The notes under the pieces: model-generated
The model's database searches: none
The model's input: only the letters and a program-made list of their open reading frames with translations
What the model was told of the DNA's origin: nothing
Translations under genes and position numbers: made by a program
NCBI GenBank assembly: GCA_964585945.1
Contig: CAZPGB010000006.1
Coordinates: forward strand, 7,724-71,723
Length of the DNA stretch: 64,000 nt
Reading direction: 5' to 3'
Source: an uncultured bacterium
GTDB lineage: Bacteria > Eisenbacteria > RBG-16-71-46 > CAIMUX01 > WJJG01
In this document: positions 10,475-37,383 of the stretch, piece by piece
Numbering within the stretch: position 1 is the stretch's first letter
How the letters are laid out: each line of letters starts with the position of its first letter

Positions 10475-10655
10475 GAGCCCGAGGGCTCGAGGCGTTGCCG
10501 GTGGTGTCGCCCGGACGCTCCTGGTAGATCTAATCGTTGGGTTTGACTCTCATCGTGAGCCACACTTGCGGCGGGAGAGAATCGCTACGGCCGGTGTTCC
10601 ACGGTCGGAGGATCCGGGGGGACGGCCCCCATTGCCGGCGATGGAGGAGGAAGGC

Positions 10656-11798
10656 ATGCGGCGCATGTGGATACGGGCGCGGACAAAGCACGTACGGCTT
10701 ACCGCGTTCGCACTGTTGATGTTGGGACTGTCGTCCTGCGGCGGCGGCGACCGCGGGCGGGACGAGGCGGGCCAAGTGAAGACCGGGGAGGGCCATGTGG
10801 TGATGATTGCGGACCAGGAGGAACTCAGCCGCCGCCTGGCGGAGGCCGGGGACCAGCTCGTCCTGGTGGATCTGTATGCCGATTGGTGTGGCCCCTGCCG
10901 ATTGCTCTCGCCGGTGTTGGAGGAGATCGCGCGGGAGCGGGCCGACCAGGTGTCGGTCTTCAAGGTCAACGTCGATGAGAACCGCGAGCTGGCCCGGGCC
11001 TTTGGCGTGACCGGAATCCCCCTGGTCGTCTTCCTCAGGGGTGGCGAGCGCGTGCACGCCATCACGGGCGTTCATCCCAAGGCCACGTACCTGCGCGCAA
11101 TCGAGCGATTCGGCGCGGTGGCGCAGACTCCGGCGACCGAGACGCCCGATGGGGAGTTGATCGACGGCGTGCGCGTGATCCGCATTGGCTCGGGTGTCGA
11201 TCTGGGGCCGCTGCAGGTCTTCCGCGGGGAGACGGTGCGGCTGGTGGTCGAGGCGACCGGCTGGCCGTTCCAGCTCAGCATTCCAGCCTTCGACATCCTC
11301 GAACGGGCGCCGGAGGACCGGGCTCTCGAGGTGTCCTTCAAGACGGCGGAGGTGGGCGTCTTTCCGGTCTTCTGCAACGGTCGCTGTCCCGCGGGGGACG
11401 GCGCCCGCGTGGGGCAGATCGTGGTGGTGCCCCTGACCTCCGTTGGGGAGACGCGCTTCACGGAGCTGACGACCGAAGAAGCCCGGGCCCTGATCGCGCG
11501 CGACGATCCCCTGATTCTCGACGTGCGGACGCCCCAGGAGTTCTATTCCGGACACCTGGAGAAGGCGACCCTGATTCCGCTTCAGCAGTTGGAGCCAAGG
11601 GTGGAGGAGATCGAGGCGCACCGGGATCGCCCGGTGCTGCTCTACTGCCGCTCGGGCAACCGGAGCACGGTGGCCGCCGAGATCCTGATGCGCCACGGCT
11701 TCAAGGATCTGTACAACCTGCGCTATGGCATCCGCGATTGGATCCAGGAGGGCCACCCGGTGGTGGATGCCTCCGGATCGATGGCCGCGAAGTCCTAG
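10656..11798 (+). CDS. tri-domain lipoprotein: thioredoxin (WCGPC) - Cys-containing beta-sandwich - rhodanese
   Basis: ATG at 10656 after GGAGGAGGAAGGC. Lipobox LSSC. Thioredoxin motif DLYADWCGPC. Middle domain with FCNGRCPAGDG. C-terminal rhodanese domain (ILDVRTPQEF...LLYCRSGNRS). Confidence 0.75.
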   Translation: MRRMWIRARTKHVRLTAFALLMLGLSSCGGGDRGRDEAGQVKTGEGHVVMIADQEELSRRLAEAGDQLVLVDLYADWCGPCRLLSPVLEEIARERADQVSVFKVNVDENRELARAFGVTGIPLVVFLRGGERVHAITGVHPKATYLRAIERFGAVAQTPATETPDGELIDGVRVIRIGSGVDLGPLQVFRGETVRLVVEATGWPFQLSIPAFDILERAPEDRALEVSFKTAEVGVFPVFCNGRCPAGDGARVGQIVVVPLTSVGETRFTELTTEEARALIARDDPLILDVRTPQEFYSGHLEKATLIPLQQLEPRVEEIEAHRDRPVLLYCRSGNRSTVAAEILMRHGFKDLYNLRYGIRDWIQEGHPVVDASGSMAAKS

Positions 11799-19796: not shown

Positions 19797-20432
19797 CTAC
19801 TCCTTCCCGGACCCCAGATAGGACCGCTCGATGCCCATCACCACCTTGAGCGCGGTCGAGGCCATGCCCAGACCCACGCCCAGAATGATCGCCCGCTTCG
19901 CCACCAGGTTGGGGTTGTCCAGAATCCAGCGGGCGATCGCGGGGATGCCCAGGGAGGCGCCCTCGTCGAGCCGGCCGATCATGACGATGACCGCGGCGAT
20001 GAGCAGAATGGTTGCATCGACGCTGCGCGTGCGGAAGGCGCGGAAAGCCGCCGAGGCCAGATAGAAGGCCAGCAGCGAGAACATCGTCGCCTGCACCGGC
20101 AGCAGGATGGCGTTGAAGAGGTCCTGATACAGCGTGCCTTCGCCCCGTCCGCCGATGAAACCGGCCAGGAGCATCACCGTCAGCCCGACCAGCGCGGCCA
20201 GGCTGTAGACCCAGTCCTTGTGCCGCTTGCGCTCGGGCCCCGAACGCTGCACGCGGTGGGTGTGGCGCTGGATGACGCTGGCCAGTCCCAGGATGATCGA
20301 GAAGGCGTAGACGATCTGCATGTAGTCGTTGATGCGGTCGTAGTAGGGCAGGAACGCGGGCACGAAGTACTGGATGGCCATGAAGCTGCCGGCCAGGAAG
20401 CAGATCGTCAGCGGTACGCGCGTCCTCATCAT
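19797..20432 (-). CDS. uncharacterised polytopic membrane protein (module gene B)
   Basis: About 5 TM helices. ATG at 20432 overlaps the stop of gene A (ATGA). The ORF track start 20471 would overlap gene A by 43 nt. Confidence 0.55.
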   Translation of the reverse strand: MMRTRVPLTICFLAGSFMAIQYFVPAFLPYYDRINDYMQIVYAFSIILGLASVIQRHTHRVQRSGPERKRHKDWVYSLAALVGLTVMLLAGFIGGRGEGTLYQDLFNAILLPVQATMFSLLAFYLASAAFRAFRTRSVDATILLIAAVIVMIGRLDEGASLGIPAIARWILDNPNLVAKRAIILGVGLGMASTALKVVMGIERSYLGSGKE

Positions 20433-21679
20433 CCGCCCGACCCCCTCACGCGCAAGATCTCGTTGACCCAAGCGATCGGCTCACCGCGCACCAGCGCGCC
20501 GGCGGTCATCAGGGCCACGCCGACGATGATCATCAGAATGCAGAGCAGCTTGTAGTAGTCCTGCCCTTTCAGGCTGCCCAGCAGCGTCGGCTCGCGGCCG
20601 ATGTAGGCGCTGGCCGCGTAGAGCTCCTCGCCGATGATGGTGTAGTCGCAGGCGGTGACGAAGAAGGGTAGCTGCGTGATGGCGTCGGTGCCGGCGATCT
20701 GGATCGCCCCCACCGAGGCGCCGGTCTCGGCCAGTACGAGCGACTCGGCGTAGAACATCCCCAGCAGCAGATTGGCCCCGGGCCGCTCGCGCACCATCGT
20801 GCCGCAGACGGCCGCCGCGTAGGTGAACTGGTCGTTGGTGACGAAGTAGATGTCCTCGGGCCGGTAGTTGTGGGGGAAGCCGGCGGCGATGAAGGCCTCC
20901 TTGACGACGTCCTGCGTAACCGGATAGACGATCGGGTCGCGGTTGGGAATCAGGATGCGCGCCTGGTAGCGGGCGATCTTCTTGGCCACCTCGGAGAGGA
21001 TGTTGAGCGAGGCGATCGTGGCTACGTCCTGGATGGTGCTGATGCCGGGAATGTAGAGTGTCGGCCGGCCCATCTCGGTGCAGCGCCCGACGGCCTCGTC
21101 GATGGCGTCGAGGCCCGCGATGCGGCGGATCTTGAGCTCGCGACCCCGGCGGGCGACGTGGATGAAGCCCAGGATCATCGCCACGAAGATGATGACCGCC
21201 ACGAGCGTGTTGAGCTTGTTCGTGTAGAACCACTGCCGCGCGGGCGCCACCGGGGCCGAGGGCTCCGTGCTCGCCCGCATGCCGTCGGGACCATGCGTCT
21301 CGATCATGTAGACGTAGCTGCGGCCGGGGCGCAGTCCGGTGTCGTCGTAGCTGAAGCTCTCGGTGCGCAGGCGGGCCGGGAACGACTTCACCACGGCGAA
21401 GCTGTCCACCCCGGGATCCTGCCGCAGGATGACGTAACGGTCGACGGTGGGCGCATCCATCGCGTCACCGGGCGCGCGCCCGAACTGGATGCGCAGCGCG
21501 GTGCCGGCGTCGAGCGGCTTGTCTTCCACGGAGAAACCGGTGACGGGGGCGACGGCCGATGCAACTGCAGCAAGGGGGAGTGCGAGCGCGAGCAGCACCA
21601 AGGCGATGATCTCGGATGTCCGCTGTGTCCGTGCTAGGCCCAAGCCGGTGCGTTCCACGCGCCCCTCGTCCTCCACCAA
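20429..21679 (-). CDS. uncharacterised membrane protein with N-terminal signal/TM, FN3-like beta domain, TM, conserved about 220-aa domain, C-terminal TM (module gene A)
   Basis: TTG/GTG start region at 21659-21679 (RBS GAGGACGAGGGG before the GTG at 21661), so the start is uncertain. Beta-rich segment RYVILRQDPGVDSFAVVKSF...YVYMIETHGPDG. Hydrophobic helices VAVIIFVAMILGFIHV and LLCILMIIVGVALMTAGALV. Confidence 0.55.
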   Translation of the reverse strand: MVEDEGRVERTGLGLARTQRTSEIIALVLLALALPLAAVASAVAPVTGFSVEDKPLDAGTALRIQFGRAPGDAMDAPTVDRYVILRQDPGVDSFAVVKSFPARLRTESFSYDDTGLRPGRSYVYMIETHGPDGMRASTEPSAPVAPARQWFYTNKLNTLVAVIIFVAMILGFIHVARRGRELKIRRIAGLDAIDEAVGRCTEMGRPTLYIPGISTIQDVATIASLNILSEVAKKIARYQARILIPNRDPIVYPVTQDVVKEAFIAAGFPHNYRPEDIYFVTNDQFTYAAAVCGTMVRERPGANLLLGMFYAESLVLAETGASVGAIQIAGTDAITQLPFFVTACDYTIIGEELYAASAYIGREPTLLGSLKGQDYYKLLCILMIIVGVALMTAGALVRGEPIAWVNEILRVRGSGG

Positions 21680-24655: not shown

Positions 24656-25744
24656 CTAGAGGAAGGCCCGCAGGCGGCGATAGGTGCCGGGGAAGTACTC
24701 CTCGAAGAGGCGATCCATATCGTCGATCGCCGCCCGCAGCAGGGCCACCTTCTCGTGATAGGGCTGGAAGGCGCTCTTGAAGCCGCTGATCAAGATGCCG
24801 CGCAGGTCGTAGATGCTGAGCTGGAACGTTCGGCAGGCCAGATCCAGCTCCTTGGTGACCGAGGTGTTGGAGACCAGCCGGTTGTCGGTGTTGATCGTCA
24901 CGCGCAGCCCCGCATCGAAGTAGATCCGAAACGGGTGGCTGTGGATGCTGGTGGTCGCCCCGGTCTGCACGTTGCTCGTCAGACACAGCTCGAGCGGGAT
25001 GCGGTGGTCGTTGACGTAGTTCATCAGCTCGCGGTCCTGCCAGAGCAGCGTGCCGTGCCCGATGCGGTGCGCGCCGCAGTAGTGGAGGGCTTGATGGATC
25101 GAGGGAGGTCCGAAGCCCTCGCCGGCGTGGACCGTTCCCGAGATGTTGTTGTTCCGCACGACGTAGAAGGCTTCCCGGTGGTCCTTGGCCGGGAAGTGGG
25201 CCTCCTCGCCGGCCAGATCGAAACCGACGACGCCGTTGTGCTTGTAGGCCACGGTCATCTCCGCCAGCCGCAGGCTCATCTCCGGGGTCATGGTGCGGAT
25301 GCCCGTCAGGATCACGCCCGTGCGAAGCACATAGCGGTCCTCCGCGTCGCGCAGGCCCGACAGCACCGCGTCGACCGCCTGCTCCCAGCTCTGCCCCTGG
25401 GCCTCGTGCAGGGGCGGGGCGAAGCGCGCCTCCATGTAGCGGACGTTCTCCTTGGCCGCGTCCTCGGCCAGCTCGAAGGCCACCCGGCGCAGGGCATCGG
25501 GTGTTTGCAGCACCTTGAGCGTGAGGTCGAAGACGCTCAGGTAGCGCTTCAGGTCCTGGGTGGCCGTCTCCTCCATGTAGCGCACCACGTCCTCGCACGT
25601 CTCGAAGGGCAGCTCGACCTGCTGTTGCCGCGCCAGCTCGAGTAGCGTCTCGGGTCGCAACGAGCCGTCCAGGTGGACGTGCAGGTCGGTCTTGGGCAGG
25701 CGGTGCACGAGCTCGTGGGGTATCTCCATCCTTTGCTCCTTCAA
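24656..25744 (-). CDS. add: adenosine deaminase
   Basis: HVHLDGSLRPETLLELA metal-binding motif. Full-length adenosine/AMP deaminase-family fold signature (SLSTDDP-like region CLTSNVQTG). Confidence 0.9.
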   Translation of the reverse strand: MKEQRMEIPHELVHRLPKTDLHVHLDGSLRPETLLELARQQQVELPFETCEDVVRYMEETATQDLKRYLSVFDLTLKVLQTPDALRRVAFELAEDAAKENVRYMEARFAPPLHEAQGQSWEQAVDAVLSGLRDAEDRYVLRTGVILTGIRTMTPEMSLRLAEMTVAYKHNGVVGFDLAGEEAHFPAKDHREAFYVVRNNNISGTVHAGEGFGPPSIHQALHYCGAHRIGHGTLLWQDRELMNYVNDHRIPLELCLTSNVQTGATTSIHSHPFRIYFDAGLRVTINTDNRLVSNTSVTKELDLACRTFQLSIYDLRGILISGFKSAFQPYHEKVALLRAAIDDMDRLFEEYFPGTYRRLRAFL

Positions 25745-25808
25745 CGCCGCGGGGCGGTGTGCCCCGCCATGGGCGCCGACGATCGCTCGTCGGCGCGCGA
25801 GTTCGCGT

Positions 25809-27164
25809 TCAACCGCTCAGATTCGCGCGCGCGAGCAACGCCTCGCGCTGCGTCGTGGCCTGCGCGCGAATTCGTTCCAGATCGCCGTCGACCAGCGCGC
25901 CGTCGCGCACCAGGAAGCGGCCGTCGACGACCACTTCCCGCGGTCGCGGCACCCCGGTGGCCAGCGCCAGACGGTGGGCCGCCGAGCTCTGTGGGTCCCA
26001 GGCGAGGTCCTCGTCGCGGAAGAGAATCAGATCGGCCCGGCGGCCGGCCGCCAGGGTGCCCACCTCCCGCTCCAGGCCCACGACGCGCGCGCCCTCCCGG
26101 GTCGCCATGACCAGCGTCTCCTCGATCGGCAGGGCGCCGGGACCCGCGCGCAGGCTCTGCATCTGGGCGGCCAGGCGCATGTCCAGGACCACCGACAGCG
26201 CATCGTTGCAGGCGGCCGCGTCGGAGCCCAGGCCGACCGGCACGCCCGCGGCGCGCAGGCCCACCACATCGGCGGTGCCTGAGCCCAGCTTGGCGTTGCT
26301 GCCGGGGCAGTGAACCACACCCGCGCCACAGCGCGCGAGGGCTTCCTGCTGGCGCCGATCGATCCAGATCGCGTGGACCAGAATGGTCCGGACCTCGAAA
26401 ACCCCCCAGCGAGCGAGGATCCCGATCGGGTCGTCGCCGTGCATGGCGCGGCAGGTCTCGTTCTCCCACGGCGTTTCCGACACGTGGGTGTGGATGGGCG
26501 CGCCGCGCGCTCTGGCCGCCGCCGCCAGCTCCTTCCACAGCGGCTCGGAGACCGAGAGGGTGAACCGGGGCGCCAGCGCGCCGCGCACCCTTCCATCGGC
26601 CGCCCCGTCCCAGCGGTCGTGCACCCCCAGCGCCTCGCGCAGGGCGGTGGCGGTGTCCTGGACCAGTGCGGGCGGCACCCGCTCGCCGGTGTCCATCAGC
26701 GCCTTGCCGAGCACGATCCGAATGCCCATCTCCCGGGCCACCTCGCCGATGACGTCGGTGTGGTGGACCGAGCCCATGTCCAGCAGCGTGGTGCTGCCCG
26801 CCAAGAGCGACTCGGCCACTCCGAGCCGGGCCGACGCGGCCATCGACTCCGGGTCGTGGGCCGCCTCCAGGGGCCAGATGCGCTCGGCCAGCCAGCGGTC
26901 GAGGGGCCGGTCCTCAGCCGTGCCCCGCAGGAGGCTCTGACAGAGGTGGATGTGGGCCTGCACGAAGCCCGGGAGCACCCACCAGCCCGGTCGGTCGAGC
27001 ACGCGCGTGGTCGGCTCGGGCTCGCCCAGGTCGGACCCCAGAGCGTGGATCCGGGAGCCCGCCACCTCGAGGTCGCCGGTCAGATCGCCCCGGTCGGGGT
27101 CCATCGTGATCAGTCGCGCACCCCGAATCCGCCATCGCGGGGTCTGGTCGGCGACCCTGGTCAT
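25809..27164 (-). CDS. amidohydrolase-family deaminase (MtaD/TrzA/SsnA-like; 5-methylthioadenosine/S-adenosylhomocysteine or guanine deaminase type)
   Basis: ATG (cat at 27162-27164) after AAAGGAG. Metal-binding LPGFVQAHIHLCQSL. An amidohydrolase-1 signature runs through the C-terminal HxH/D residues. The ORF extension to 27422 was rejected. Confidence 0.8.
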   Translation of the reverse strand: MTRVADQTPRWRIRGARLITMDPDRGDLTGDLEVAGSRIHALGSDLGEPEPTTRVLDRPGWWVLPGFVQAHIHLCQSLLRGTAEDRPLDRWLAERIWPLEAAHDPESMAASARLGVAESLLAGSTTLLDMGSVHHTDVIGEVAREMGIRIVLGKALMDTGERVPPALVQDTATALREALGVHDRWDGAADGRVRGALAPRFTLSVSEPLWKELAAAARARGAPIHTHVSETPWENETCRAMHGDDPIGILARWGVFEVRTILVHAIWIDRRQQEALARCGAGVVHCPGSNAKLGSGTADVVGLRAAGVPVGLGSDAAACNDALSVVLDMRLAAQMQSLRAGPGALPIEETLVMATREGARVVGLEREVGTLAAGRRADLILFRDEDLAWDPQSSAAHRLALATGVPRPREVVVDGRFLVRDGALVDGDLERIRAQATTQREALLARANLSG

Positions 27165-27318
27165 GCCATCTCCTTTCGCTCCTCTTTCGCTCCTCCGAGC
27201 CCGTTTCCTCCGCCCTGGTCGGGCTTTGGCGCTTGACACCCCCTCGGCCGCCCCGATACATCTTGGCGCAAGCTGGCGGGCTCGATCCGGTCCGAGCGAG
27301 CCCCGCCGTGGAGGGCTC

Positions 27319-27891
27319 ATGCGTGTTCTGCTCACAGAGTCGCAGATCCAGCAGCGGATCCGCGAGCTGGCCCGGGAAATCGCCCGGGACTTCCTCGGCA
27401 AGAGCCCGGTGCTGATCGGCATTCTGAAAGGGTCGATCTACTTCATGGCCGATCTCATGCGCGAGCTGGACGTCGACCACGAGGTCGACTTCATCTCCAT
27501 CTCCAGCTACGCCTCCGGCGTCACGTCGTCGGGCACCGTGCGCATGCTCAAGGATCTGGACCAGGACATCACCGGCCGGGACGTCCTGATCGTCGAGGAT
27601 ATCATCGACAGCGGCTTGTCGCTTTCCTATCTTCGCAAGAACCTTTTGTCGCGCAATCCGCGCAGCCTGTCGATCGTCACCCTGTTGGCCAAGGAGGTGC
27701 CCCGGGAGCGGCAGATCTACGTCGACTACTGCGGCTTCGACATCGGCGACGAGTTCGTGATCGGCTACGGTCTGGACTACGCCGAGCACTATCGTGAGCT
27801 GCCGTACATCGCCGTGATGGAATCCGAAGACCGCGCCCGTGTCGATGCGCTCCACGAGGCGGTCCAGGAGGGGCCCTCGGCCCCCGCGTAG
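27319..27891 (+). CDS. hpt: hypoxanthine-guanine phosphoribosyltransferase
   Basis: PRPP-binding motif VLIVEDIIDSGLSLSYL. Length and N-terminus MRVLLTESQIQQRIRELA typical of Hpt. Confidence 0.9.
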   Translation: MRVLLTESQIQQRIRELAREIARDFLGKSPVLIGILKGSIYFMADLMRELDVDHEVDFISISSYASGVTSSGTVRMLKDLDQDITGRDVLIVEDIIDSGLSLSYLRKNLLSRNPRSLSIVTLLAKEVPRERQIYVDYCGFDIGDEFVIGYGLDYAEHYRELPYIAVMESEDRARVDALHEAVQEGPSAPA

Positions 27892-27947
27892 GGGACGCGT
27901 CACCACCTGGGGAGTCGATTGCACGACGGGCTTGAAGGGAGGGAAGC

Positions 27948-28655
27948 ATGAGTCCCGGCCGACCCGAGGACGCCTTCTTCGTGGCCCTGTGCGGCAACAT
28001 CGGCGTCGGCAAATCCCTCTTCGCCGAGCGGCTCGGCCGGCGCATGGGCCTGGACATCTACTACGAGCCGGTCTCGCAGAATCCCTACCTGGAGGCGTTC
28101 TACCGGGACATGCGGCGCTGGGCCTTTCATCTGCAGATCTACTTCCTGGCCGAGCGGTTCAAGGCCCAGAAGGCGATGAACCAGAGCGGGCGGCCCTTCA
28201 TCCAGGATCGCACCATCTACGAGGACGGCGAGATCTTCGCGCGCGTGCTGCACGAGCGCGGCGAGATGGAGCGGCAGGACTACGAGAGCTACCTGGCGCT
28301 CTTTCGCGAGATGGTCGACCTGCTGGCCCGCCCTTCGCTCCTGATCTACCTGCGCGCCTCGAGGCCGACGCTGCTGCGCCGGATCGCCGACCGGGGACGC
28401 CGCTGCGAGGCGTCGATCGAGCCACGGTACCTGGACCAGCTCGAGGAGGCCTACCGCGCGTGGGCGCCCGGCATGGCGAGCGTCTGTCCGGTCCTGGAGG
28501 TCGACACCGAAGCGATCGTCTATCCGCCGGGGGAGGAGGTGCTCGAGCCGATCGTGGCCCGCATCCGCCGCGAGGCGGCCGGCCGCGGCGTGGCGCTGCC
28601 GCCCACGGCGACGCGGATCGAGACGCCGTCGCGGCCCGGCGGCGGGGGGGCGTGA
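27948..28655 (+). CDS. deoxynucleoside kinase (dAdo/dGuo/dCyd kinase family)
   Basis: P-loop LCGNIGVGKSLFAERL. dNK family motifs (YEPV...NPYLEAFY, DRTIYED, lid RRIADRGRRCE). Confidence 0.85.
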   Translation: MSPGRPEDAFFVALCGNIGVGKSLFAERLGRRMGLDIYYEPVSQNPYLEAFYRDMRRWAFHLQIYFLAERFKAQKAMNQSGRPFIQDRTIYEDGEIFARVLHERGEMERQDYESYLALFREMVDLLARPSLLIYLRASRPTLLRRIADRGRRCEASIEPRYLDQLEEAYRAWAPGMASVCPVLEVDTEAIVYPPGEEVLEPIVARIRREAAGRGVALPPTATRIETPSRPGGGGA

Positions 28656-29440
28656 TCGTGGTACCGAGGAAGACGGCGACATCGGGACGGGCCGGGCGCG
28701 CGGGCGAGACCACGTCCCGTCGCCCCAGGGCGGCCGCCGGAAAGAAGCCCGCACGGCGCAAGCCCTCCGGCGCGCGGCCGGTGCGCGGTCGCAAGACCGA
28801 GCTGCGCAGGGTGTTGATCGGTGTGGCGGGGGGCTCGGCCTCGGGCAAGACGATGGTGGCCGACCGCGTCTGCGAGGAGCTGGGCACCGATCAGGTGGCC
28901 ATCGTCAAGCAGGACTTCTACTACAAGGATCTGAGCCACCTGCCGTTCGAGGAGCGCACCAAGCAGAACTTCGATCACCCCGACGCCTTCGACATGGAGC
29001 TCTTCTACAACCACGTGCGGCTGCTGCTCGAGGGGTCGGACCTCGAGGTCCCCGTCTACGACTTCAGGAAGCACCTGCGCCTGAAGGAGACGCTGACCAT
29101 CTCGGGCTGCCGCATCATCATCCTCGAGGGCATCCTCCTGCTCGACGATCCGCTCCTGCGCACGCTGATGGACATCAAGGTCTACATCGACACCGACTCC
29201 GACATCCGCCTGATGCGCCGCATCCGGCGCGACGTCGCCGAGCGCGGCCGCACGCTGGAGGCGGTGCTCGATCAGTACGAGAACAGCGTGCGCCCGATGC
29301 ACCTGCAGTTCGTCGAGCCCTCGAAGCGCTACGCGGATGTGATCGTGCCCGAGGGCGGCCACAACGAGGTGGCCATCGATCTGCTGGTCACCAAGATCCG
29401 CTCGATCCTCGAACCGCGGGCGGGGGCCAAGCGCGCATGA
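28652..29440 (+). CDS. udk: uridine/cytidine kinase
   Basis: P-loop GVAGGSASGKT. Udk signature DFYYKDLSHLPFEERTKQNFDHPDAFD. GTG start overlaps the dNK stop (GTGA); the exact start (28652 vs 28658) is uncertain. Basic N-terminal extension. Confidence 0.75.
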   Translation: MIVVPRKTATSGRAGRAGETTSRRPRAAAGKKPARRKPSGARPVRGRKTELRRVLIGVAGGSASGKTMVADRVCEELGTDQVAIVKQDFYYKDLSHLPFEERTKQNFDHPDAFDMELFYNHVRLLLEGSDLEVPVYDFRKHLRLKETLTISGCRIIILEGILLLDDPLLRTLMDIKVYIDTDSDIRLMRRIRRDVAERGRTLEAVLDQYENSVRPMHLQFVEPSKRYADVIVPEGGHNEVAIDLLVTKIRSILEPRAGAKRA

Positions 29441-30045
29441 CCTTCGGCACCCCACAGGGCACCGGCTGGATCGAGGTCATCTGCGGCTGCATGTTCAGCG
29501 GCAAGACCGAGGAGTTGATCCGCCGTCTGCGTCGCGCGCAGATCGCCCGCAAGAAGGTGGCCATCTTCAAACCGGTGGTGGACGACCGCTACGCGCCCGC
29601 CGAGATCGTGACCCATGACCGGGTGAGCATCGAGTCGATCCCGGTGCGCCATCCACGCGAGATCCTCGATCGCGGGGCCGCAGCGGATGTTCTGGGCATC
29701 GACGAGGTGCAGTTTTTCGACCGCAGCGTCGTGGACGTCTGCCAGGAGCTGGCGGCGCGGGGCACGCGGGTGATCGTGGCCGGTCTGGACACCGACTACC
29801 GCGCCCAGCCCTTCGACCCGATACCCGAGCTGATGGCGGTGGCCGAGTACGTGACCAAAACCCAGGCGATCTGCGTGGTGTGCGGCAACCCGGCCAGCCG
29901 CACCCAGCGCGTGGTGGCCGGAGGCGACCGAATCCTGGTGGGGGGGATCAGCGCCTACGAGGCGCGCTGCCGGCGCTGCTATCGTCCGCCGGAGGCCGAG
30001 TCGGGGGAGCTGTTCGGGCCGTCGGAGTCCGGGGAGGAGGCCTAG
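29437..30045 (+). CDS. tdk: thymidine kinase
   Basis: P-loop CGCMFSGKTEELIRR. C-terminal zinc-ribbon cysteines (CVVCG...CRRC). The ATG overlaps the udk stop. Confidence 0.9.
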   Translation: MTFGTPQGTGWIEVICGCMFSGKTEELIRRLRRAQIARKKVAIFKPVVDDRYAPAEIVTHDRVSIESIPVRHPREILDRGAAADVLGIDEVQFFDRSVVDVCQELAARGTRVIVAGLDTDYRAQPFDPIPELMAVAEYVTKTQAICVVCGNPASRTQRVVAGGDRILVGGISAYEARCRRCYRPPEAESGELFGPSESGEEA

Positions 30046-31095
30046 ATGATCTGGCGCATGGGAGACCGCGGCCGGGCCGCGGACAACCGCCCGTGGGCGC
30101 TCCTGGCGAGCGCGCTGCTCCTGCTGGTGGTCGGCTGTTCGGGCGGCGATGGGGGCGCCGAGCGCGGCCCGGCCGACTTCCACGTCGGCCTCGTATTCGA
30201 TGTGGGTGGCCTGGGTGACAAGTCCTTCAACGACCTGGCCTACGCCGGGTTGATGCGCGCGCGCGAGGAGCTGGGCGTCAGCTTTGAGTACTTCGAGCCC
30301 ACGCAGGGGGCGGAGCGGGAGTCGGCGCTGCGCCTCTTCGCGCAGGGTGACGCCGATCTGATCATCGGCGTGGGGTTCCTCTTCACCGACGACATCCGCG
30401 CCGTGGCCGAGGACTTTCCCGACAAGCGGTTCGTCTGCATCGACTACACCTGGATGCCGGGCGACAGCGTGCCGCCCAACCTGGTGGGCGTGAAGTTCCG
30501 CGAGCACGAGGGCGCCTTCCTGGTGGGCGCCCTGGCCGCGATGGTGACCGAGACCGGGACGATCGGCTTCGTGGGGGGCATGGACATTCCGCTGATCCAC
30601 AAGTTCGAGGCCGGGTATCGCGCCGGCGCCAAGCACATCGATCCCGATTGCCGCGTGATCGTCAACTACGCCGGGGTCACCGGCGATGCCTTCAAGAACC
30701 CGTCGAAGGGCAAGGAGCTGGCCCTGTCGCAGTACGATCAGGGCGCCGACATCATCTTCCACGCCTCGGGCTCCACGGGTCTCGGGGTGTTCGAGGCGGC
30801 CCGCGAGAAGGAGCACCTCGCGATCGGGGTGGATGCCGATCAGTCCTCCGAGGCGCCGGGGCTGGTGCTCACCAGCATGACCAAGAACGTGGATGTGGTC
30901 GTCTTCCGGGAGATCGCCGCGGCGGTGTCGGGGAACTTCGAGGGCGGCGTCGAGGAGCTGGGCTTGCGCGAGAACGCGATCGGCTACGTGCGCAACGAGA
31001 CCAACGAGCGCTGGTTCACACCCGACGTGGTCCAGCGGCTGAACCGCATCCGCGGGGAGATCATCGCCGGGGGCATCGACGTCCCGAAAGAGTGA
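30046..31095 (+). CDS. BMP family (Med/PnrA-like) nucleoside-binding lipoprotein, ABC transporter substrate-binding component
   Basis: Lipobox VVGCSGG. BMP family motifs VGLVFDVGGLGDKSFND, IGVGFLF, IDYTW. Immediately upstream of the ABC ATPase and permeases. Confidence 0.85.
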   Translation: MIWRMGDRGRAADNRPWALLASALLLLVVGCSGGDGGAERGPADFHVGLVFDVGGLGDKSFNDLAYAGLMRAREELGVSFEYFEPTQGAERESALRLFAQGDADLIIGVGFLFTDDIRAVAEDFPDKRFVCIDYTWMPGDSVPPNLVGVKFREHEGAFLVGALAAMVTETGTIGFVGGMDIPLIHKFEAGYRAGAKHIDPDCRVIVNYAGVTGDAFKNPSKGKELALSQYDQGADIIFHASGSTGLGVFEAAREKEHLAIGVDADQSSEAPGLVLTSMTKNVDVVVFREIAAAVSGNFEGGVEELGLRENAIGYVRNETNERWFTPDVVQRLNRIRGEIIAGGIDVPKE

Positions 31096-31111
31096 GGGGC
31101 ACGATCGAGAG

Positions 31112-32725
31112 ATGACGGCCGAGTCCGGGACCGCCCTGCGCGCCCCCGAGGTGCGGCTCGAGGAGATCACCAAGCGCTTCGGCTCCACGGTGGCCAACGA
31201 TCGGGCCAGCGTCCGTTTCGCGCCCGGATCGATCCACGCGCTGGTCGGCGAGAACGGCGCCGGCAAGTCGACGCTCATGCGGGTGCTCTACGGCCTGCTG
31301 CGCCCCGACGCGGGCCGCATCTGGATCGACGGTGCACCGCGCACCATCGCGTCTCCCGCCCAGGCGCTCGAGTGCGGCATCGGGATGATTCACCAGCACT
31401 TCATGCTGGTGCCGCCGATGCGTGTGCTCGAGAACATCGCCCTGGGCTGCGAGGGGCTACGCGGGCTGCACGCCCTGCCCCGCGCGCGTCTGGCGGCCGA
31501 GCTGCGCCGCCTCTTCACCTCCTACGGCTTCGAGATCGACCCCGAGGCGCCGGTGGCCGCAATGGGCGTCGGCGCGCGCCAGAGGGTCGAGATCGCGCGG
31601 CTGCTCTACCGGGGCGCCCGGGTGCTGATCTGCGACGAGCCGACCGCGGTTCTGGCCCCGCCGGAGGTCGCCTCCTTCTTCGAGAACCTGCGCCGGCTGC
31701 GCAGTGAGGGGCGCACGGTGGTGCTGATCACCCACAAGCTCTCCGAGGTCCTGGCGATCGCCGACCGCGTCACCGTGTTGCGCAAGGGGCGCGTGGTGGG
31801 CGAGATGGAGCGCGACCAGATCCGCCGCGACGCGCTCGTGCAGATGATCATGGGGCCGGCGCGGGCGCAGGTGGACGAGCGGGGCGATCAGCCGACCGTG
31901 CGGGCCACGCCGATCGCGGCCGCGCCGTCGCTGCAGCGCGCGCGCGCGGCGAGCCGGGGCGCGGGACCGGCGCTGCAGCTCCGCCAGATCACGCTGCGCG
32001 GCTCGGGGGGCCGGTCGCTGCTCGAGCGTATCGATCTCGAGGTCGCGCCGGGCGAGATCCTGGGCATCGCCGGCGTGGCCGGCAACGGGCAGAGCGAGCT
32101 GGCCGAGGTGGCCTCCGGGCGCCGAGTCTTCGATGAGGGCGTGCTGCGCGTGGGGGGCTGCTTCTACGAGCCGGGGAAGCTGCCCGCCGCCCGCGAGCGC
32201 CCGTCGCTGATCCCGGAGGACCGCAACCAGGAAGGGCTGATCGGGGCGTTCCGCCTGTGGGAGAACCTGCTGCTGGGGCGCACGGAGGAGGCGCCCTTCG
32301 TGCGGCGGGGGCTCTACGCCCACGGCCCCGCGCGCCGCTGGGCGCGGCGGCAGCTCGAGCGCTTCGCGGTGGCGCCGCCCGACGAGATGCTCGCCGCCCA
32401 CGCCCTGAGCGGCGGCAATCAGCAGAAGCTGCTCTGCGCGCGTGAGCTCACGCGGGGCGGCAGCGTGCTGGTGGCCGCGCAGCCCACCCGCGGCGTCGAC
32501 ATCGCCAGCATCGCGTTCATTCACAGCACGCTGCGCGAGTTCCGCGCGGCGGGCGGCGGGGTGCTGCTGATCTCGGCCGACCTGGACGAGATCCTCGCGC
32601 TGTCCGACCGCGTGGCGGTGCTCTACCGCGGCCGCCTGGGTCGGGCTGAGGCGCGCGCCGATGTGGATATGGAGGGGATCGGCCGGGCGATGGTCGGGTT
32701 GGACGGCTCCCGGCCGGCCGTCTAG
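31112..32725 (+). CDS. ABC transporter ATP-binding protein with two fused ABC domains (nucleoside/sugar type)
   Basis: Two Walker A sites (GENGAGKST; GVAGNGQSEL). Signatures LSGGNQQK, and Walker B (LICDEP, LLISAD). 537 aa. Confidence 0.9.
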   Translation: MTAESGTALRAPEVRLEEITKRFGSTVANDRASVRFAPGSIHALVGENGAGKSTLMRVLYGLLRPDAGRIWIDGAPRTIASPAQALECGIGMIHQHFMLVPPMRVLENIALGCEGLRGLHALPRARLAAELRRLFTSYGFEIDPEAPVAAMGVGARQRVEIARLLYRGARVLICDEPTAVLAPPEVASFFENLRRLRSEGRTVVLITHKLSEVLAIADRVTVLRKGRVVGEMERDQIRRDALVQMIMGPARAQVDERGDQPTVRATPIAAAPSLQRARAASRGAGPALQLRQITLRGSGGRSLLERIDLEVAPGEILGIAGVAGNGQSELAEVASGRRVFDEGVLRVGGCFYEPGKLPAARERPSLIPEDRNQEGLIGAFRLWENLLLGRTEEAPFVRRGLYAHGPARRWARRQLERFAVAPPDEMLAAHALSGGNQQKLLCARELTRGGSVLVAAQPTRGVDIASIAFIHSTLREFRAAGGGVLLISADLDEILALSDRVAVLYRGRLGRAEARADVDMEGIGRAMVGLDGSRPAV

Positions 32726-32757
32726 CGTACAATGCCATCAGGGAGGGGCCCCGACAT

Positions 32758-33802
32758 CGTGGTGCGCTTGCAGAGACTGATTCGGCACGGCTTCCCCGTC
32801 GCCAGCGCGCTGACCGCCGCGGTGCTGCTGGCGATCGCGATCGCCGTGCTGCTGGGTGTCTCGCCCGCGCGGCTGGCCCACACCCTCATCGAGCGCCTGG
32901 GACCGTTCGCCTGGGGCCAGGTGCTCTTTCGGGCCACCTTCCTCACCTTCACCGGGCTCTCGGTGGCGCTCGCCTTCCAGGCCGGTCTGTTCAACATCGG
33001 CGCCGAGGGGCAGGCCGTCGTCGGATCGTTGGGCTGCGCGCTGGTGGGCATCGCCCTGACCGGCTGGCCCGCCTGGATCGTGCTGCCCGCCGCGATCGCC
33101 GGCGCGATGGTGGCGGGCGGCCTGTGGGGCTTCATCCCGGGCTGGCTCAAGGCGCGCTTCGGGACGCACGAGGTGATCAACACGATCATGCTCAACTTCA
33201 TCGCCTTGGCCGGATCGAACTTCTTGATGACCCGCTACCTGGCGCTGCCCGAGACGGTGCGCACCGCCGAGGTGGGCGCCGCGCTGCCGCGCCTGGATGC
33301 GCTGGTGCCCGCGCTGCGCGGCTCGGCGGTCAACGCCAGCCTGGGTCTGGCCGTGGCGGCCGTCGTGGTGGCGCACATCTTCACGCACCACACCGTCGCC
33401 GGCTTCAAGCTGCGGGCCGTGGGGCGCGGGCCGGTCCAGGCGCGCATGGCCGGCATCGATCCCGGGCGGCGCCTGGTGCTGGCCTTCGCGCTGGCCGGCG
33501 CGGCCGCCGGGCTGGTGGGCACCAACTTCGTGCTGGGCTACAAGCACTACTACGAGGACGGCTTCACCGGCGGCATCGGGTTCCTCGGTATCGCCGTCGC
33601 GCTGATCGCGCGCAACGAGCCGCTGGCGATCCTGCCGGCCGCGCTGCTGTTCGGCTTCCTGGCCGAATCGGGATTGGTGGTCAACACCCTGCTGCCGCGT
33701 GAGATGGTGGACGTGCTCACCGGCGCCATCTTGCTCGTCTTCATCGTGGCCGAGCGCATGCGGGCCCAGGGCCTGCGCCGCTTGCGGGAGCCGTCGCGAT
33801 GA
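32758..33802 (+). CDS. ABC transporter permease (nucleoside/sugar type, first membrane subunit)
   Basis: About 8-10 TM helices. Start taken at GTG 32758; the ORF-track start 32732 overlaps the ATPase end. Confidence 0.75.
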
Positions 33803-34722
33803 GTCCGATCGCCCTGGTGCTGTCGCTCATCGCCCAGACGCTGCGCATCAGCGTGCCCTATGCGCTGGCCTCGTGCGGTGGGGTGCTCTCGGAGCGCGGC
33901 GGCGTGGTCAACATCGCCCTGGAGGGCATCCTGCTCAACGGCGCCTTCTGCGCCGTGGTGGGCACCATCTTCACCGGCTCGCCCTACGCGGGCATCCTGT
34001 GCGCCATGTTCGGGGGACTGCTGACGGCCGCCCTGCACGCCCTGGTCACGGTGACGGGCAAGGCCGATCAGATCGTCTCCGGACTGGCGATCAACATCCT
34101 CAGCTTCGGCTTGACGCGGGGAGGGCTGCGGGTTCTCTTCCACAGCGCGAGCAACTCCCCGCGGATCGAGGCCCCCGCGACGCCGTGGACGGAGATGGAG
34201 GCCGGCGTCGTCGGACCGCTGGTCCGGGTGCTGGGCAATCCGCTCTTCCTGCTGACCGTGGCGCTGATTCTGGCGTCGCTCTGGCTGCTGTTCCGGTCCG
34301 GTCTGGGCCTGGCCCTGCGCACGGCAGGGGAGCATCCCGAGGCGGCGCACTCGGCCGGGTTCTCCGTGGCCCGCCTGCGCTGGCTCGGTGTGCTGGCCAG
34401 CGGTCTGCTCGGGGGCCTGGGCGGAGCCTGGCTGGCCTTCGAGCAGCACTCCTTCACCGACCAGATGTCGGGCGGGCGCGGCTACATCGCGCTGGCGGCG
34501 ATGATCGTGGGCAAGTGGCACCCGCTGGGGGCGGCCGCCGCCTGCCTCCTCTTCGGCGCGGCGGAGACGGCCCAGATCCGGCTGCAGGGCAGCGGCGCGC
34601 CCACACAGCTCTTGCAGATGCTTCCGTTTGCGCTGACGATCCTCGTGCTGGTCGTCTGGATCGGACGATCGGTGGCGCCCGCGGCGGTCGGCCGGCCCTA
34701 CGATCCCGAGCAGACCGACTGA
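33799..34722 (+). CDS. ABC transporter permease (second membrane subunit)
   Basis: The ATG overlaps the previous stop (ATGA). Polytopic, with the conserved permease loop region GGLGGAWLAFEQ. Confidence 0.8.
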   Translation: MSPIALVLSLIAQTLRISVPYALASCGGVLSERGGVVNIALEGILLNGAFCAVVGTIFTGSPYAGILCAMFGGLLTAALHALVTVTGKADQIVSGLAINILSFGLTRGGLRVLFHSASNSPRIEAPATPWTEMEAGVVGPLVRVLGNPLFLLTVALILASLWLLFRSGLGLALRTAGEHPEAAHSAGFSVARLRWLGVLASGLLGGLGGAWLAFEQHSFTDQMSGGRGYIALAAMIVGKWHPLGAAAACLLFGAAETAQIRLQGSGAPTQLLQMLPFALTILVLVVWIGRSVAPAAVGRPYDPEQTD

Positions 34723-34761
34723 GCCGCGCCCGCGGCCCGAGGAGAGGCGGATGAGAGGACC

Positions 34762-35586
34762 ATGAAACGGGTCTCCGAGTCGATCGACCCCGCGGCCCTG
34801 GCGGTGTTGCGTGCGGCCGCAGGAGATGTGCCCTTCGGGGGCGCGGCGGTCCTGGGCTCGGGGCTGGGCGGCCTGCTGGACGGGTGGAAGCCGGTGGCAT
34901 TCTTCTCGCCCGACGACCTGCCCGGCTATCCCCGTTCCACCGTGGAGGGGCACGCCGGCCGGGCGGCGGTCGTGCGCTGGGGCGAGCAGGCGGGACTGGT
35001 CTTTCAGGGTCGCGTGCACGTCTACGAGGGCTGCCGGCGTCCGGAGGTGACCTTCGGCGTGCGGCTGGCCGCGGCCCTGGGCTGCCGCTGGATCCTGCTG
35101 ACCAACGCCGCCGGCGCCACCGACCCCCGCCTGACGCCCGGCACCATCATGGTGGTCGAGGACCACGTGCGGCTGCTGCTGGGGGGGCGCGCGCTGGGCA
35201 CGACGGTCACCCCCGGGACCCGGTTGCGGGGCAGCCCCTACGACGCGCGCCGCACCGAGCGGCTGTTTCGGGAGCTGAGCCTGGCGCGCCTGCGAGTGGT
35301 CCGCGGCGTGCTGGTCGGCGGGCTGGGGCCCAACTACGAGACCGCCGCCGAGGTGGAGATGATCCGCCGCCTGGGCGGGCACGCCGCCTGCATGTCGACC
35401 GTGATCGAGGCCGAAGAGGCCGCACGGTTGGGCATGGACACAGTGGCCCTGTCGCTGATCACCAACCTGGCCACCGGCCTCACGCCGCGGCGGCTCGATC
35501 ACGACGAGGTGGTCGCGATCGCGGACCGGATGGGCCCCGACCTGTCGCGGGCGCTGGCCCGCGTGGTCGCGGACTGGTGTGCGTGA
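34762..35586 (+). CDS. purine nucleoside phosphorylase (PNP/MTAP family)
   Basis: Motifs GSGLGGL, HAGRAAVVRWGEQ, VHVYEG, GPNYETAAEVEM, STV.EA typical of trimeric PNP family enzymes. Confidence 0.85.
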   Translation: MKRVSESIDPAALAVLRAAAGDVPFGGAAVLGSGLGGLLDGWKPVAFFSPDDLPGYPRSTVEGHAGRAAVVRWGEQAGLVFQGRVHVYEGCRRPEVTFGVRLAAALGCRWILLTNAAGATDPRLTPGTIMVVEDHVRLLLGGRALGTTVTPGTRLRGSPYDARRTERLFRELSLARLRVVRGVLVGGLGPNYETAAEVEMIRRLGGHAACMSTVIEAEEAARLGMDTVALSLITNLATGLTPRRLDHDEVVAIADRMGPDLSRALARVVADWCA

Positions 35587-35631: not shown

Positions 35632-37044
35632 CTACCCGGACGACTTGGACGCGTGCCGGATGACGAGGTGGTCGTCCTGCACGTCGACCATGATGCTGCG
35701 CGCGGCGGCGTGCTCGAGCAGGTACTTCGAGAGCGGGGTGAACAGCTTCTCCTCGAGCGCCCGGTTCAGATACCGCGCGCCCGCCTTGCGGACCTCTTGC
35801 TCCTTGATGAACGTGTCGTAGACGCGGTCGCTGATGATGACGCCCCGGTTCTGCTTCTTGAGCCTCTCGAGGACGGTGTTGACCTTGTAGCGCGCGATCA
35901 GCCGCACGTCCTCGGGCGTGAGGCTGTTGAAGAAGAGGACCCCATTGAAGGCTCCGATCAGCTCCTGGGAGAACTGCTCCTCGAGGATCTTGCGTCGCCG
36001 CTCCTCGCGCGGGATGCGCGAGCGCGTGAACCCGATCTGTTCGACCAGCTCGACATCCTCGACATCCATGCGCGTCGTAGCGAAGACGATCGAGCGGCTG
36101 AAGGAAACCTCACCCTGCGCGTCGATCAGGTTGCCGCGCTCGAGGATGTGGAGCAGCAGGCGGCGGACCCCCTCGTGGGCCCGCTCGATCCCGCGAAACA
36201 GGATCACCGAGTTGGGATTGCGCCGCACGGGCGTGGTCAGGGTTCCCTCGATCAACACCCCCTCGGCGCCCGGGTACGCGGTGACCAGCAGGTCCTCGAG
36301 GTCCTCTTCTTCGGAGTAGTCGGCCATGTCCAGGTTGATCACCCGGCTGTCGCTGCCCAGCAGGACCTCGGCCACGGCGTTGGCGAACTCGGTCTTGCCC
36401 ACGCCGGGCGGCCCGACGAGGAGAAACGAACCGTCGGGACGGCTGGGCTTGAAGTCGAGGTTGGTGCGGCGGATGCGGATCACGTTGGCCACGCGCCGAA
36501 TGGCCTCTTCCTTCCCGACGATGCGCTGGCCCAGCTGCTCCTCCAGGTGCAGCAGCGTGCTGTTTTCATCGCGCACGATGCGGCGCCGAGCGGCGCGCTT
36601 GGCGTCGGCGGCGGATTTCCTGGACGATCCGGAACGGCTCGCGCGTGCCGACGGGCCCTTCGACGCAGGACGCCGCTCGCGGGCTGTCTCGCGCGACGGA
36701 ACGCTCTTGGCAGTCTTGCGAGCCTGATTCTTCTTGCGCTGAGCGCCGGCGGCCGGCTTCTTGGCGGTCTTCTTCTTGCGCTGAGCGGTCGTGGGCGGCT
36801 TCTTGGCGGCCTTCTTCTTGCGCTGAGCGGCGGTGGGCGTCTTCTTGGCCGCCTTCTTGGAGGCCTTCTTCCTGCCCGCAGGGTCTTTACGCTGGGAGCG
36901 GACGGCGCCCGACCCGGGGGCGCCGCCGGCGGGCTTCCGCGGGCGCGGCTTCTTGCGGCGCGGGGCGACCTTGCGCCCGCGACGGGAGCCGGGCGCGGCG
37001 GCCGACGGGCGGGAACCAGTGCGGGTCTTCTCCGGCTTCTTCAT
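35632..37044 (-). CDS. AAA+ ATPase-like protein (ClpA/ClpB D2-type domain) with N-terminal Lys/Ala-rich histone-H1-like tandem repeats
   Basis: ATG (cat at 37042-37044) after GAGGAGCAGGAGG. N-terminal repeats KKAAKKTPTAAQRKKKAAKKPPTTAQRKKKTAKKP. Walker A GPPGVGKT. Sensor/arginine-finger region like ClpB D2, but the Walker B reads ILFRGIERAH instead of the acidic hhhhDE. Confidence 0.7.
   Translation of the reverse strand: MKKPEKTRTGSRPSAAAPGSRRGRKVAPRRKKPRPRKPAGGAPGSGAVRSQRKDPAGRKKASKKAAKKTPTAAQRKKKAAKKPPTTAQRKKKTAKKPAAGAQRKKNQARKTAKSVPSRETARERRPASKGPSARASRSGSSRKSAADAKRAARRRIVRDENSTLLHLEEQLGQRIVGKEEAIRRVANVIRIRRTNLDFKPSRPDGSFLLVGPPGVGKTEFANAVAEVLLGSDSRVINLDMADYSEEEDLEDLLVTAYPGAEGVLIEGTLTTPVRRNPNSVILFRGIERAHEGVRRLLLHILERGNLIDAQGEVSFSRSIVFATTRMDVEDVELVEQIGFTRSRIPREERRRKILEEQFSQELIGAFNGVLFFNSLTPEDVRLIARYKVNTVLERLKKQNRGVIISDRVYDTFIKEQEVRKAGARYLNRALEEKLFTPLSKYLLEHAAARSIMVDVQDDHLVIRHASKSSG
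36725..36870 (-). repeat. imperfect tandem repeats of about 42-45 bp (cttcttcttgcgctgagcgg...ggcttcttggcgg) encoding the Lys-rich tail
   Basis: Three or more copies read directly from the sequence. Confidence 0.7.
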
Positions 37045-37383
37045 CGCCTCCTGCTCCTCCGTCCTCGCGGATGCACTGCTCCAAGGCCTTGTCCAGAAGC
37101 CAATTGAAGCATCGCCCCCAGGCCTCTTCGGCGCCGGCCCCGTCCCACTGAAGTGAAGGCGCATCGTTCGGGCGGCGTCCACCATCTACAGTTCGGCATT
37201 GTGGGGGCCGACGTTGATTCTGTCGAGTCCGCCGTTTGGTGTGCGCCGCCGCGATCCGCTAGGATCGGGGGGTCGGAACTGCGGGCGGGATGGACCGCGA
37301 GGGCTTTGCGCCCCGATGGCTGACCCGCGCCATCGGCGCGGCCGAGTTGCTCGCGGCGGCGAGTCCAGGGAGGGAGGCGTCGA

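Follow-up and report, generated by a model that had tools for sequence, protein, structure and literature searches.

A putative motor-dead Clp relative of the Eisenbacteria with an invariant predicted ClpP-docking tripeptide and a polycationic tail

The Clp ATPases ClpC, ClpA and ClpX carry a ΦGF tripeptide which fits into hydrophobic pockets of the ClpP barrel, the H-sites, and we know of no characterised bacterial ClpP partner that is not an ATP-burning unfoldase. Here we analysed a gene located on a 64,000-nt stretch of DNA, referred to as the window, from an uncultured bacterium of the Eisenbacteria (assembly GCA_964585945.1, contig CAZPGB010000006.1). Its 470-aa product consists of a disordered tail of about 159 residues followed by one AAA+ module of the Clp/Hsp100 D2 type, and the features discussed below are collected in Table 1. 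The closest described relatives are the D2 domains of ClpC from Staphylococcus aureus and Bacillus subtilis and of ClpC1 from Mycobacterium tuberculosis, which share with the 470-aa protein the large and small subdomains, the linker helix before D2 and a ΦGF docking loop at the identical alignment position (32-33% identity). Unlike ClpC, the 470-aa protein has no N-domain, D1 or M-domain, carries RG at Walker B, GAEG in the pore loop, Arg at sensor-1 and Ala at the position of the Arg finger, and has a basic tail added. For ClpC, cryo-electron microscopy of a MecA/ClpC/ClpP assembly placed the ΦGF motif A671-G672-F673 at the tip of the P-loop with which ClpC docks into the H-site of ClpP, and the exchange G672D/F673D abolished the ClpC-ClpP interaction (PMC12521514).

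Three further Clp proteins served for comparison. Human CLPB (Skd3) likewise joins a non-AAA N-terminal region to a single D2-type module (PDB match with E ~4e-21), but it carries ankyrin repeats and canonical motifs, works as an active disaggregase and is not known to bind ClpP. The second nucleotide-binding domain (NBD2) of ClpB and Hsp104 is similarly close, with about 34% identity for Thermus thermophilus ClpB and a Foldseek target TM-score of 0.83-0.87. Unlike ClpB, the 470-aa protein possesses the ΦGF loop and lacks the motor residues and the M-domain; ClpB itself binds ClpP only after a ClpA loop has been grafted onto it (BAP entries 5ofo and 4d2q). ClpX resembles the 470-aa protein in having a single AAA+ module with literally the same IGF tripeptide (PMC9035409), but it works as an active motor and possesses RKH loops, pore loops and an N-domain that binds zinc. 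Its sequence match was weak (E 0.04 in a tblastn search with an Escherichia coli ClpX core), and by sequence the 470-aa protein belongs to the ClpA/B/C D2 lineage and not to ClpX.

The extent of the module was defined by profile and structure searches. The NCBIfam models of ClpB, ClpV, ClpA, ClpG and ClpK aligned by their C-terminal third with residues 150-462, at scores of 142-191 bits and thus well below the equivalog cut-offs of 885-1900 (ClpA 156 versus 993, ClpB 191 versus 1232), and neither Pfam nor NCBIfam reported a Clp_N, D1 or M-domain in the 470-aa protein. In a phmmer search of the PDB, the best solved relatives were S. aureus ClpC (E 3e-49) and T. thermophilus ClpB (E 3e-46), with further matches to ClpC1, Hsp104, ClpE, ClpA and human CLPB, and the start of the alignments, residue 155, coincided exactly with the D1-D2 boundary. 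A model calculated by AlphaFold with 74 homologues had a predicted local distance difference test (pLDDT) score of >90 for residues 160-470 and of about 50 for residues 1-150, and its top Foldseek matches were ClpC-ClpP complexes and ClpB NBD2 (30-34% identity, E down to 4e-30). The lid carries the family-specific invariants I383, A384, R385 and K387. An earlier reading of the gene from its letters alone (the sequence-only reading) had described a single ClpB-D2-like AAA+ module. Pfam, PDB and Foldseek agree with the single D2-type Clp module, but the affinity to ClpB did not hold, as ClpC was the best match in the PDB and in Foldseek and ClpC-like proteins are the neighbours in the tree (see below). 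Judged by these comparisons, the module is nearer to ClpC than to ClpB.

The sequence-only reading had also proposed that both acidic Walker B residues are replaced, and the profile alignment confirmed this placement. In phmmer alignments, the query sequence 'svilfrgierah' stands opposite 'svilfdeiekah' of S. aureus ClpC and T. thermophilus ClpB, so that Asp is replaced by R284 and Glu by G285. In an alignment of 74 homologues with a mean column identity of 36%, from which all column counts given here were taken, the Asp position is occupied by R (63), H (6), Q (4) or K (1) and the Glu position by G (73) or C (1); an acidic residue at either position was found in 0/74. The sensor-1 column contains R58, H6, T5, Q3 and L2, and the column of the Arg finger A56, S11 and other residues in 7 sequences. 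In the pore loop, GYVG is changed to GAEG, with no aromatic residue at this position family-wide and a frequently acidic residue 261. For comparison we used 145 canonical D2 modules, which were chosen for a DE Walker B and therefore show 100% Glu by construction; those listed in detail have GYVG-type pore loops, Asn at sensor-1 and Arg at the finger position. Judged by the alignments, none of the canonical residues that hydrolyse ATP, sense nucleotide between subunits or grip substrates has been kept. Since the Walker B DE, the sensor-1 Asn, the Arg finger and the pore-loop Tyr are all missing, neither canonical ATP hydrolysis nor substrate translocation is expected, and the protein is very probably motor-dead. 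The public labels 'ATP-dependent Clp protease ATP-binding subunit ClpA/ClpB/ClpC' and 'AAA family ATPase' are probably wrong as statements of function.

The nucleotide pocket has decayed to a different degree in different members. G211, G214, G216 and K217 of the P-loop are each invariant (74/74), and residue 218 is T in 34 homologues, N in 29, S in 9 and A in 2. The family falls into two subclades: members with T, S or A at this Walker A position keep the sensor-2 Arg (45/45, out of 74 members), whereas those with N have lost it (31/31). Retention of ATP binding, as assumed in the sequence-only reading, is plausible for the 470-aa protein, in which Lys and Thr of Walker A are present together with the sensor-2 Arg of the GAR motif, but is doubtful for the GVGKN subclade without sensor-2 Arg. 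One may speculate that the residue at the Walker B Asp position (R, H, Q or K) and the Thr-to-Asn exchange in Walker A permit contacts with the phosphates that do not need Mg, or that they lock the pocket in a single state. The description 'chaperone-like' has become unlikely, because the loss of the pore-loop GYVG, the sensor-1 Asn and the Arg finger makes ClpB-style substrate threading impossible. A working ATPase or unfoldase that employs non-canonical catalytic residues, e.g., E287 two positions past the lost Walker B Glu, would be in line with the intact Walker A motif, the invariance of E287 in all 74 homologues, the conservation of A289 (72/74) and H290 (70/74), and the sensor-2 Arg kept in the 470-aa protein. 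However, the EKAH glutamate is also present in canonical D2 domains and is not catalytic there; the region is termed allo-W in PMC12521514. Moreover, four independent elements were lost together, and one subclade has additionally lost the Walker A Thr and sensor-2. We therefore regard an active enzyme as very improbable.

The predicted docking tripeptide was conserved throughout: I337, G338 and F339 are each present in 74/74 homologues, despite the mean column identity of 36%. In the HMMER alignment to 6em8 (residues counted by hand, in agreement with PMC12521514), they lie opposite A671-G672-F673 of S. aureus ClpC. The surrounding loop, residues 330-345, has a pLDDT of 57 in the AlphaFold model, which agrees with an exposed and flexible loop. 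Among the canonical D2 modules, ΦG[FL] was found in this loop in 92 modules, which are ClpC/ClpA-like, and was absent in 49, which are ClpB-like. The tripeptide is invariant in both subclades, including the 31/31 members without Walker A Thr and sensor-2 Arg. As IGF remained unchanged where these two residues were lost, the function that has been kept is not ATP turnover. We know of no partner of ΦGF loops other than ClpP, and docking of the protein on ClpP, predicted from this motif, is the reading that we slightly favour over its absence.

A search of 5.8 billion proteins yielded about 77 close relatives of 258-496 aa, after which the scores dropped sharply to those of canonical Clp ATPases, and a profile search of 1.84 billion cluster representatives yielded a handful of 50%-identity clusters of the D2-only type. 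When genome contigs were scanned with a generic Walker A pattern, the matches listed included only canonical ClpB/ClpC loci with 28-36% identity. All relatives with an organism name were assigned to Candidatus Eisenbacteria or Eiseniibacteriota (e.g., UniRef A0A948RTN5), the taxonomy being taken from the source names. The alignment of the 74 homologues contains 30 invariant columns. Family-specific invariants are K178, G285, R341 directly after IGF, F366, K387 and H445; the K178 column is Gln in 99% of the 145 canonical DE-bearing modules. The same gene arrangement was found around four homologues that are only 38-60% identical, from which we conclude that the gene is vertically inherited; it is under purifying selection. 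The shared gene order reflects common ancestry and not a functional link, and no neighbour of the gene encodes a Clp component.

The degenerate motifs themselves might suggest that the gene is a pseudogene in decay, mis-annotated or an artefact of assembly, but it has an intact frame with a high GC content at third codon positions (GC3), and two independent sequencing runs contain exactly the same protein. In addition, there are at least 74 homologues with 30 invariant columns and a conserved gene order, and AlphaFold predicts a confident fold, so that the probability of this explanation is negligible. The sequence-only reading had itself named two observations that would speak against it, namely an intact Walker B motif elsewhere in the profile alignment and orthologues without both the RG substitution and the basic tail. 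Neither was made, because the Walker B placement was confirmed and the orthologues keep both features (0/74 with an acidic Walker B residue, 62/63 with a tail).

In a neighbour-joining (NJ) tree, the 76 sequences of the D2-only family form a monophyletic group. Three two-ring proteins whose D2 is partly degenerate are its direct sisters, and the next group outward consists of ClpC-like proteins with [IL]GF loops; these tree neighbours argue for an origin from ClpC rather than ClpB. Four proteins (P0104, P0105, P0108 and P0110; 1018-1121 aa), each built of two or three canonical Clp modules of the D2 type in tandem, scored higher against the profile of the D2-only family than ordinary ClpC or ClpB. 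Three of these four (P0105, P0108 and P0110) have a hydrophobic, signal-peptide-like N-terminus.

With respect to the N-terminal region, the basic tail claimed in the sequence-only reading is clearly present. Residues 1-159 contain K31, A31, R28, P16, S15, G11 and T9 with 4% hydrophobic residues, and have a net charge of +53 and an isoelectric point (pI) of 12. They form the only Lys-rich stretch in the six frames of the 64-kb window, which has a GC content of about 69%. The extent of the repeats had been overestimated: instead of about 130 residues encoded by repeats of 42-45 bp, Tandem Repeats Finder (TRF) detected only 3.1 copies of a 42-bp unit and no 45-bp period. The repeat encodes three 14-aa units PT(A/T)AQRKKK(A/T)AKKP at residues 70-113, and the remainder of the tail is low-complexity basic sequence without repeats. 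The repeat block is a gap in all other sequences of the homologue alignment, even the closest ones, and therefore represents a recent strain-level expansion. The proposed resemblance to histone H1 or HU extensions holds for the composition but not for a domain, as no Pfam family was found at E up to 0.1 in residues 1-150, nor a linker-histone or HU domain. Histone-H1-like Lys/Ala/Pro tails occur in the C-terminal region of mycobacterial HupB and in Pseudomonas AlgP. These resemble the tail of the 470-aa protein in their K/A/P/S/T-rich low complexity and short KKAA-type repeats, but there is no detectable homology, and unlike in HupB and AlgP, Arg is as abundant as Lys in the tail described here.

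A basic tail is present in 62/63 full-length members of the family, with a length of 22-170 aa, a net charge of +8 to +67 and a pI of about 12, compared to a median pI of 6.1 for the AAA module across the family. Its charge is conserved but its sequence is not; the tails of other members are rich in R, S, T and P and lack KKAA repeats. One member (P0044) has a short N-terminal tail and instead a long basic disordered C-terminal tail of about 45 residues. Short basic C-terminal extensions were also seen in several members of the GVGKN subclade. According to these alignments, selection acts on a polycationic disordered region and not on a histone-like domain. From charge and composition alone, we consider the chances that the tail binds polyanions to be even.

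These properties of the tail bear on an alternative in which the protein is a ClpP-independent scaffold on the nucleoid, RNA or polyphosphate, the tail being the functional part, the dead AAA+ module an oligomerisation platform and IGF the binding site of a non-ClpP partner. In NSF, by analogy, a non-hydrolysing D2 ring holds the protein together. A scaffold would be compatible with the family-wide conservation of the tail charge, with the absence of any other Lys-rich stretch from the window (about 69% GC), with the invariance of the P-loop after loss of the catalytic residues and with the lack of clpP linkage. It leaves unexplained, however, why no loop motif other than ΦGF, precisely where ClpC docks, is invariant in 74/74 homologues, and to our knowledge ΦGF loops have no other partner than ClpP. 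Furthermore, the variable tail length (22-170 aa) and the unconserved tail sequence suggest an accessory role of this region. We thus consider a scaffold unlikely, although it is the alternative to which we assign the highest probability.

The reading we prefer is that of a ClpC-D2-derived pseudo-ATPase which would dock on ClpP but exert no motor activity, its polycationic tail serving to bind polyanions; for this combination as a whole we see arguments of about equal weight on both sides. The N-domain, D1 and M-domain would have been removed cleanly at the D1-D2 boundary, with a polycationic disordered tail in their place. The modules would assemble into a ring in which nucleotide, if bound, would serve as a structural cofactor, and R284, which replaces the Mg-binding Asp, might touch the phosphates directly. 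As a motor-less cap, the ring would dock on ClpP via its IGF loops. It might then let unstructured polypeptides enter with no unfolding driven by ATP, or it might be a competitor of ClpX and ClpC for ClpP. On the ClpP-distal face of the ring, the projecting tails could bind DNA, RNA, polyphosphate or acidic proteins, which would localise ClpP or recruit substrates.

Motor-less control of this kind has precedents: the proteasome activators PA28 and Bpa follow the same principle, and both the chloroplast Cpn11/20/23 cap and acyldepsipeptides (ADEP) are analogues of the proposed occupancy of the docking pockets, which opens or blocks the gate without ATP hydrolysis. All of these are unrelated to the 470-aa protein in sequence and fold, and none is a degenerate AAA+ ring. 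We consider the cap as either an activator or a competitor because occupancy of the H-sites opens and activates ClpP and because a cap with inserted loops represses chloroplast ClpP. IGF loops or ADEP in the H-sites order the N-terminal loops of ClpP and open the axial gate (PMC9035409), and the chloroplast co-chaperonin, a non-ATPase cap, docks loops into the ClpP clefts and represses the protease (bioRxiv 10.1101/2021.07.26.453741).

Several points weigh against the preferred reading. The 64-kb window and the flanking regions of four homologue loci contained neither clpP nor clpX; in tblastn searches of the window and six loci with E. coli ClpP and the ClpX core as queries, only the AAA gene itself matched. 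Since the gene is monocistronic and no clpP lies nearby, its context gives the ClpP reading no support. Stable binding of ClpX-type rings to ClpP requires several IGF loops jointly, and loss of the Arg finger, together with loss of sensor-2 in one subclade, could compromise hexamer assembly. All that follows from the invariant P-loop is that some ligand is still bound or the fold depends on this loop, and for the polyanion role of the tail the evidence consists of charge and composition. Finally, the placement of the two-ring family as sister in the NJ tree may partly be due to long-branch attraction.

A search of the literature on degenerate Walker B motifs, pseudo-ATPases, ATP-independent ClpP partners and Eisenbacteria revealed no description of such a protein, and a motor-dead Clp ATPase as ClpP partner is probably of a kind not described before. 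If docking on ClpP is correct, the family would show that a Clp ATPase can be reduced in evolution to its docking loop and persist as a passive regulator or cap. The family would then be a natural model of ATP-independent ClpP control, the principle used by ADEP-class antibiotics and mitochondrial ClpP agonists. The two subclades, as stages of decay, and the two-ring paralogue would form a natural experiment on which parts of an AAA+ ring serve assembly and docking and which serve motor work.

The sister group mentioned above belongs to a second family of about 29 clusters of two-ring, ClpC-like pseudo-ATPases of 606-660 aa (P0153 family; P0254-P0279, P0171, P0190), which is labelled mainly as Eisenbacteria, with one member each labelled as Latescibacterota and Gemmatimonadota. 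Its D1 has a Walker A motif GPxGVGKR and NQ, ND or SQ instead of DE at Walker B, and its D2 has mostly VDG, FDQ or FEH at Walker B, with DE left in two members only. As in the D2-only family, Walker B is degenerate, the pore-loop Tyr and the Arg finger are absent and the GF of the docking loop is invariant. The two-ring family differs by its retained, degenerate D1, an acidic rather than basic N-terminus and another conserved neighbourhood. The profile of its D2 aligned to the D2-only family with 33% identity (hhalign, E 1.7e-62). At two loci (L087:8001-9836 and L088:8001-9830), an ExbBD/TPR cluster is located upstream and genes for a VWA protein and an extracytoplasmic function (ECF) sigma factor downstream; no clpP was present close to the two-ring genes at the loci examined. 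It is conceivable, though tentative and in our view doubtful, that both families are natural, protein-encoded ClpP caps independent of ATP hydrolysis, degenerate unfoldase rings in which nothing but the docking loops is retained. Such caps would open or gate ClpP for substrates that are unstructured or bound to polyanions, and would anchor it to nucleic acid or polyphosphate via a polycationic brush. They would then be to ClpP what PA28 and Bpa are to the proteasome, and could be seen as biological analogues of the ADEP antibiotics.

The two-ring family also bears on another alternative, a catalytically dead regulatory subunit that joins a partner, either an active Clp ATPase or the two-ring paralogue, in mixed rings or stacks and tunes its activity. 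Dead AAA+ partners of comparable type are LAP1 for Torsin and the delta-prime subunit of clamp loaders. The whole D2 fold has been kept, including the interface-forming lid with the invariant residues R385 and K387, and the acidic N-terminal tail of the two-ring pseudo-ATPase could pair with the basic tail of the D2-only protein. However, no genome with both families was identified from the NCBI accession series and sample identifiers, which did not overlap between the two families, and the D2-only and two-ring genes are never adjacent. The D2-only protein has lost its own Arg finger and therefore has none to donate, and we know of no mixed Clp hexamers of this type. A role as dead subunit is thus improbable, slightly more so than the scaffold.

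Table 1. Features of the AAA+ gene and its product in the window.
Feature	Coordinates	Strand	Evidence or remark
Complete coding sequence (CDS), 470 aa plus stop	35632..37044	(-)	List of open reading frames (ORFs); translation checked
N-terminal polycationic disordered tail, residues 1-159	36568..37044	(-)	Composition; pLDDT ~50, without secondary structure
42-bp tandem repeat, 3.1 copies	36728..36858	(-)	TRF score 206, 88% matches
Large AAA+ subdomain, Pfam AAA_2, residues 202-365	35950..36441	(-)	E 3e-30; pLDDT >90
Walker A (P-loop) GPPGVGKT, residues 211-218	36391..36414	(-)	Intact
Pore-1 loop position YPGAEGVL, residues 257-264	36253..36276	(-)	Canonical D2 PPGYVG; aromatic lost
Degenerate Walker B VILFRG, residues 280-285	36190..36207	(-)	Canonical D2 hhhhDE
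Sensor-1 position R325	36070..36072	(-)	Canonical D2 Asn (TSN); here 'ttr'
I337-G338-F339, ΦGF tripeptide, predicted ClpP H-site docking motif	36028..36036	(-)	Flexible loop tip
Arg-finger position A365	35950..35952	(-)	Canonical D2 R in FLNR(I/L)D; 'flnrvd' changed to 'ligafn'
D2-small (lid) domain, Pfam ClpB_D2-small, residues 375-448	35701..35922	(-)	E 3e-9
Sensor-2 G422-A423-R424 within the lid	35773-35781	(-)	
Purine-rich Shine-Dalgarno-like run GGAGGAGCAGGAGG	37047..37060	(-)	Directly 5' of the ATG at 37044, read from the sequence
Candidate sigma-70-like promoter TCGACA-17-CACAAT	37198..37226	(-)	Consensus scan, 1 found versus 0.0 expected; pattern match only

The identical 470-aa product was called in public assemblies, i.e., a 146.7-kb NCBI contig and two Logan sequencing runs, and a GC3 of 0.89 fits coding on the minus strand for the ORF at 35632-37044. 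A 517-aa form starting at an upstream ATG at 37185 was rejected; the ATG at 37044 is preferred because all homologues begin at the aligned Met, and the public gene calls also start there. A mirror ORF on the plus strand (35653-37107) failed the GC3/GC2 filter and was discarded as an artefact of the high GC content, and terminator-like matches inside the CDS were dismissed as chance matches within the repeat.

The AAA gene is divergent from the genes for phosphofructokinase (PFK) and a GWxTD-domain protein, and the candidate promoter is located in the intergenic region which it shares with the PFK gene. The GWxTD-domain protein (PF20094; 38467-39882, plus strand) is encoded on the opposite strand next to the AAA gene or one gene away at 5/5 loci, and its gene overlaps the PFK stop codon by 11 bases. 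On the other side, the AAA gene is convergent with a gene for purine nucleoside phosphorylase (PNP) and with an operon for nucleoside uptake by an ATP-binding cassette (ABC) transporter and nucleoside salvage. This salvage block (about 24656-35586) is syntenic at the homologue loci. It contains an adenosine deaminase gene on the minus strand (24656-25744) and, on the plus strand, genes for deoxynucleoside kinase, uridine kinase, thymidine kinase, a Bmp lipoprotein, an ABC ATPase, two permeases and PNP.

A Pfam search with ten further ORFs of the window detected no components of Clp, Lon or HslU. Among the other genes of the window, a 728-aa protein (14517-16703, minus strand) has an N-terminal caspase domain (Peptidase_C14) as its only Pfam match, leaving about 500 residues unmatched, and a DUF6754 protein (E 7e-114) is encoded at 20429-21679 (minus strand). 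Further products are a PAS-containing hybrid histidine kinase with two receiver domains (8315-10474, minus strand) and a thioredoxin-rhodanese fusion protein (10566-11798, plus strand), and a 347-aa ORF at 5762-6805 (minus strand) has a coding-like GC3 and no Pfam match.

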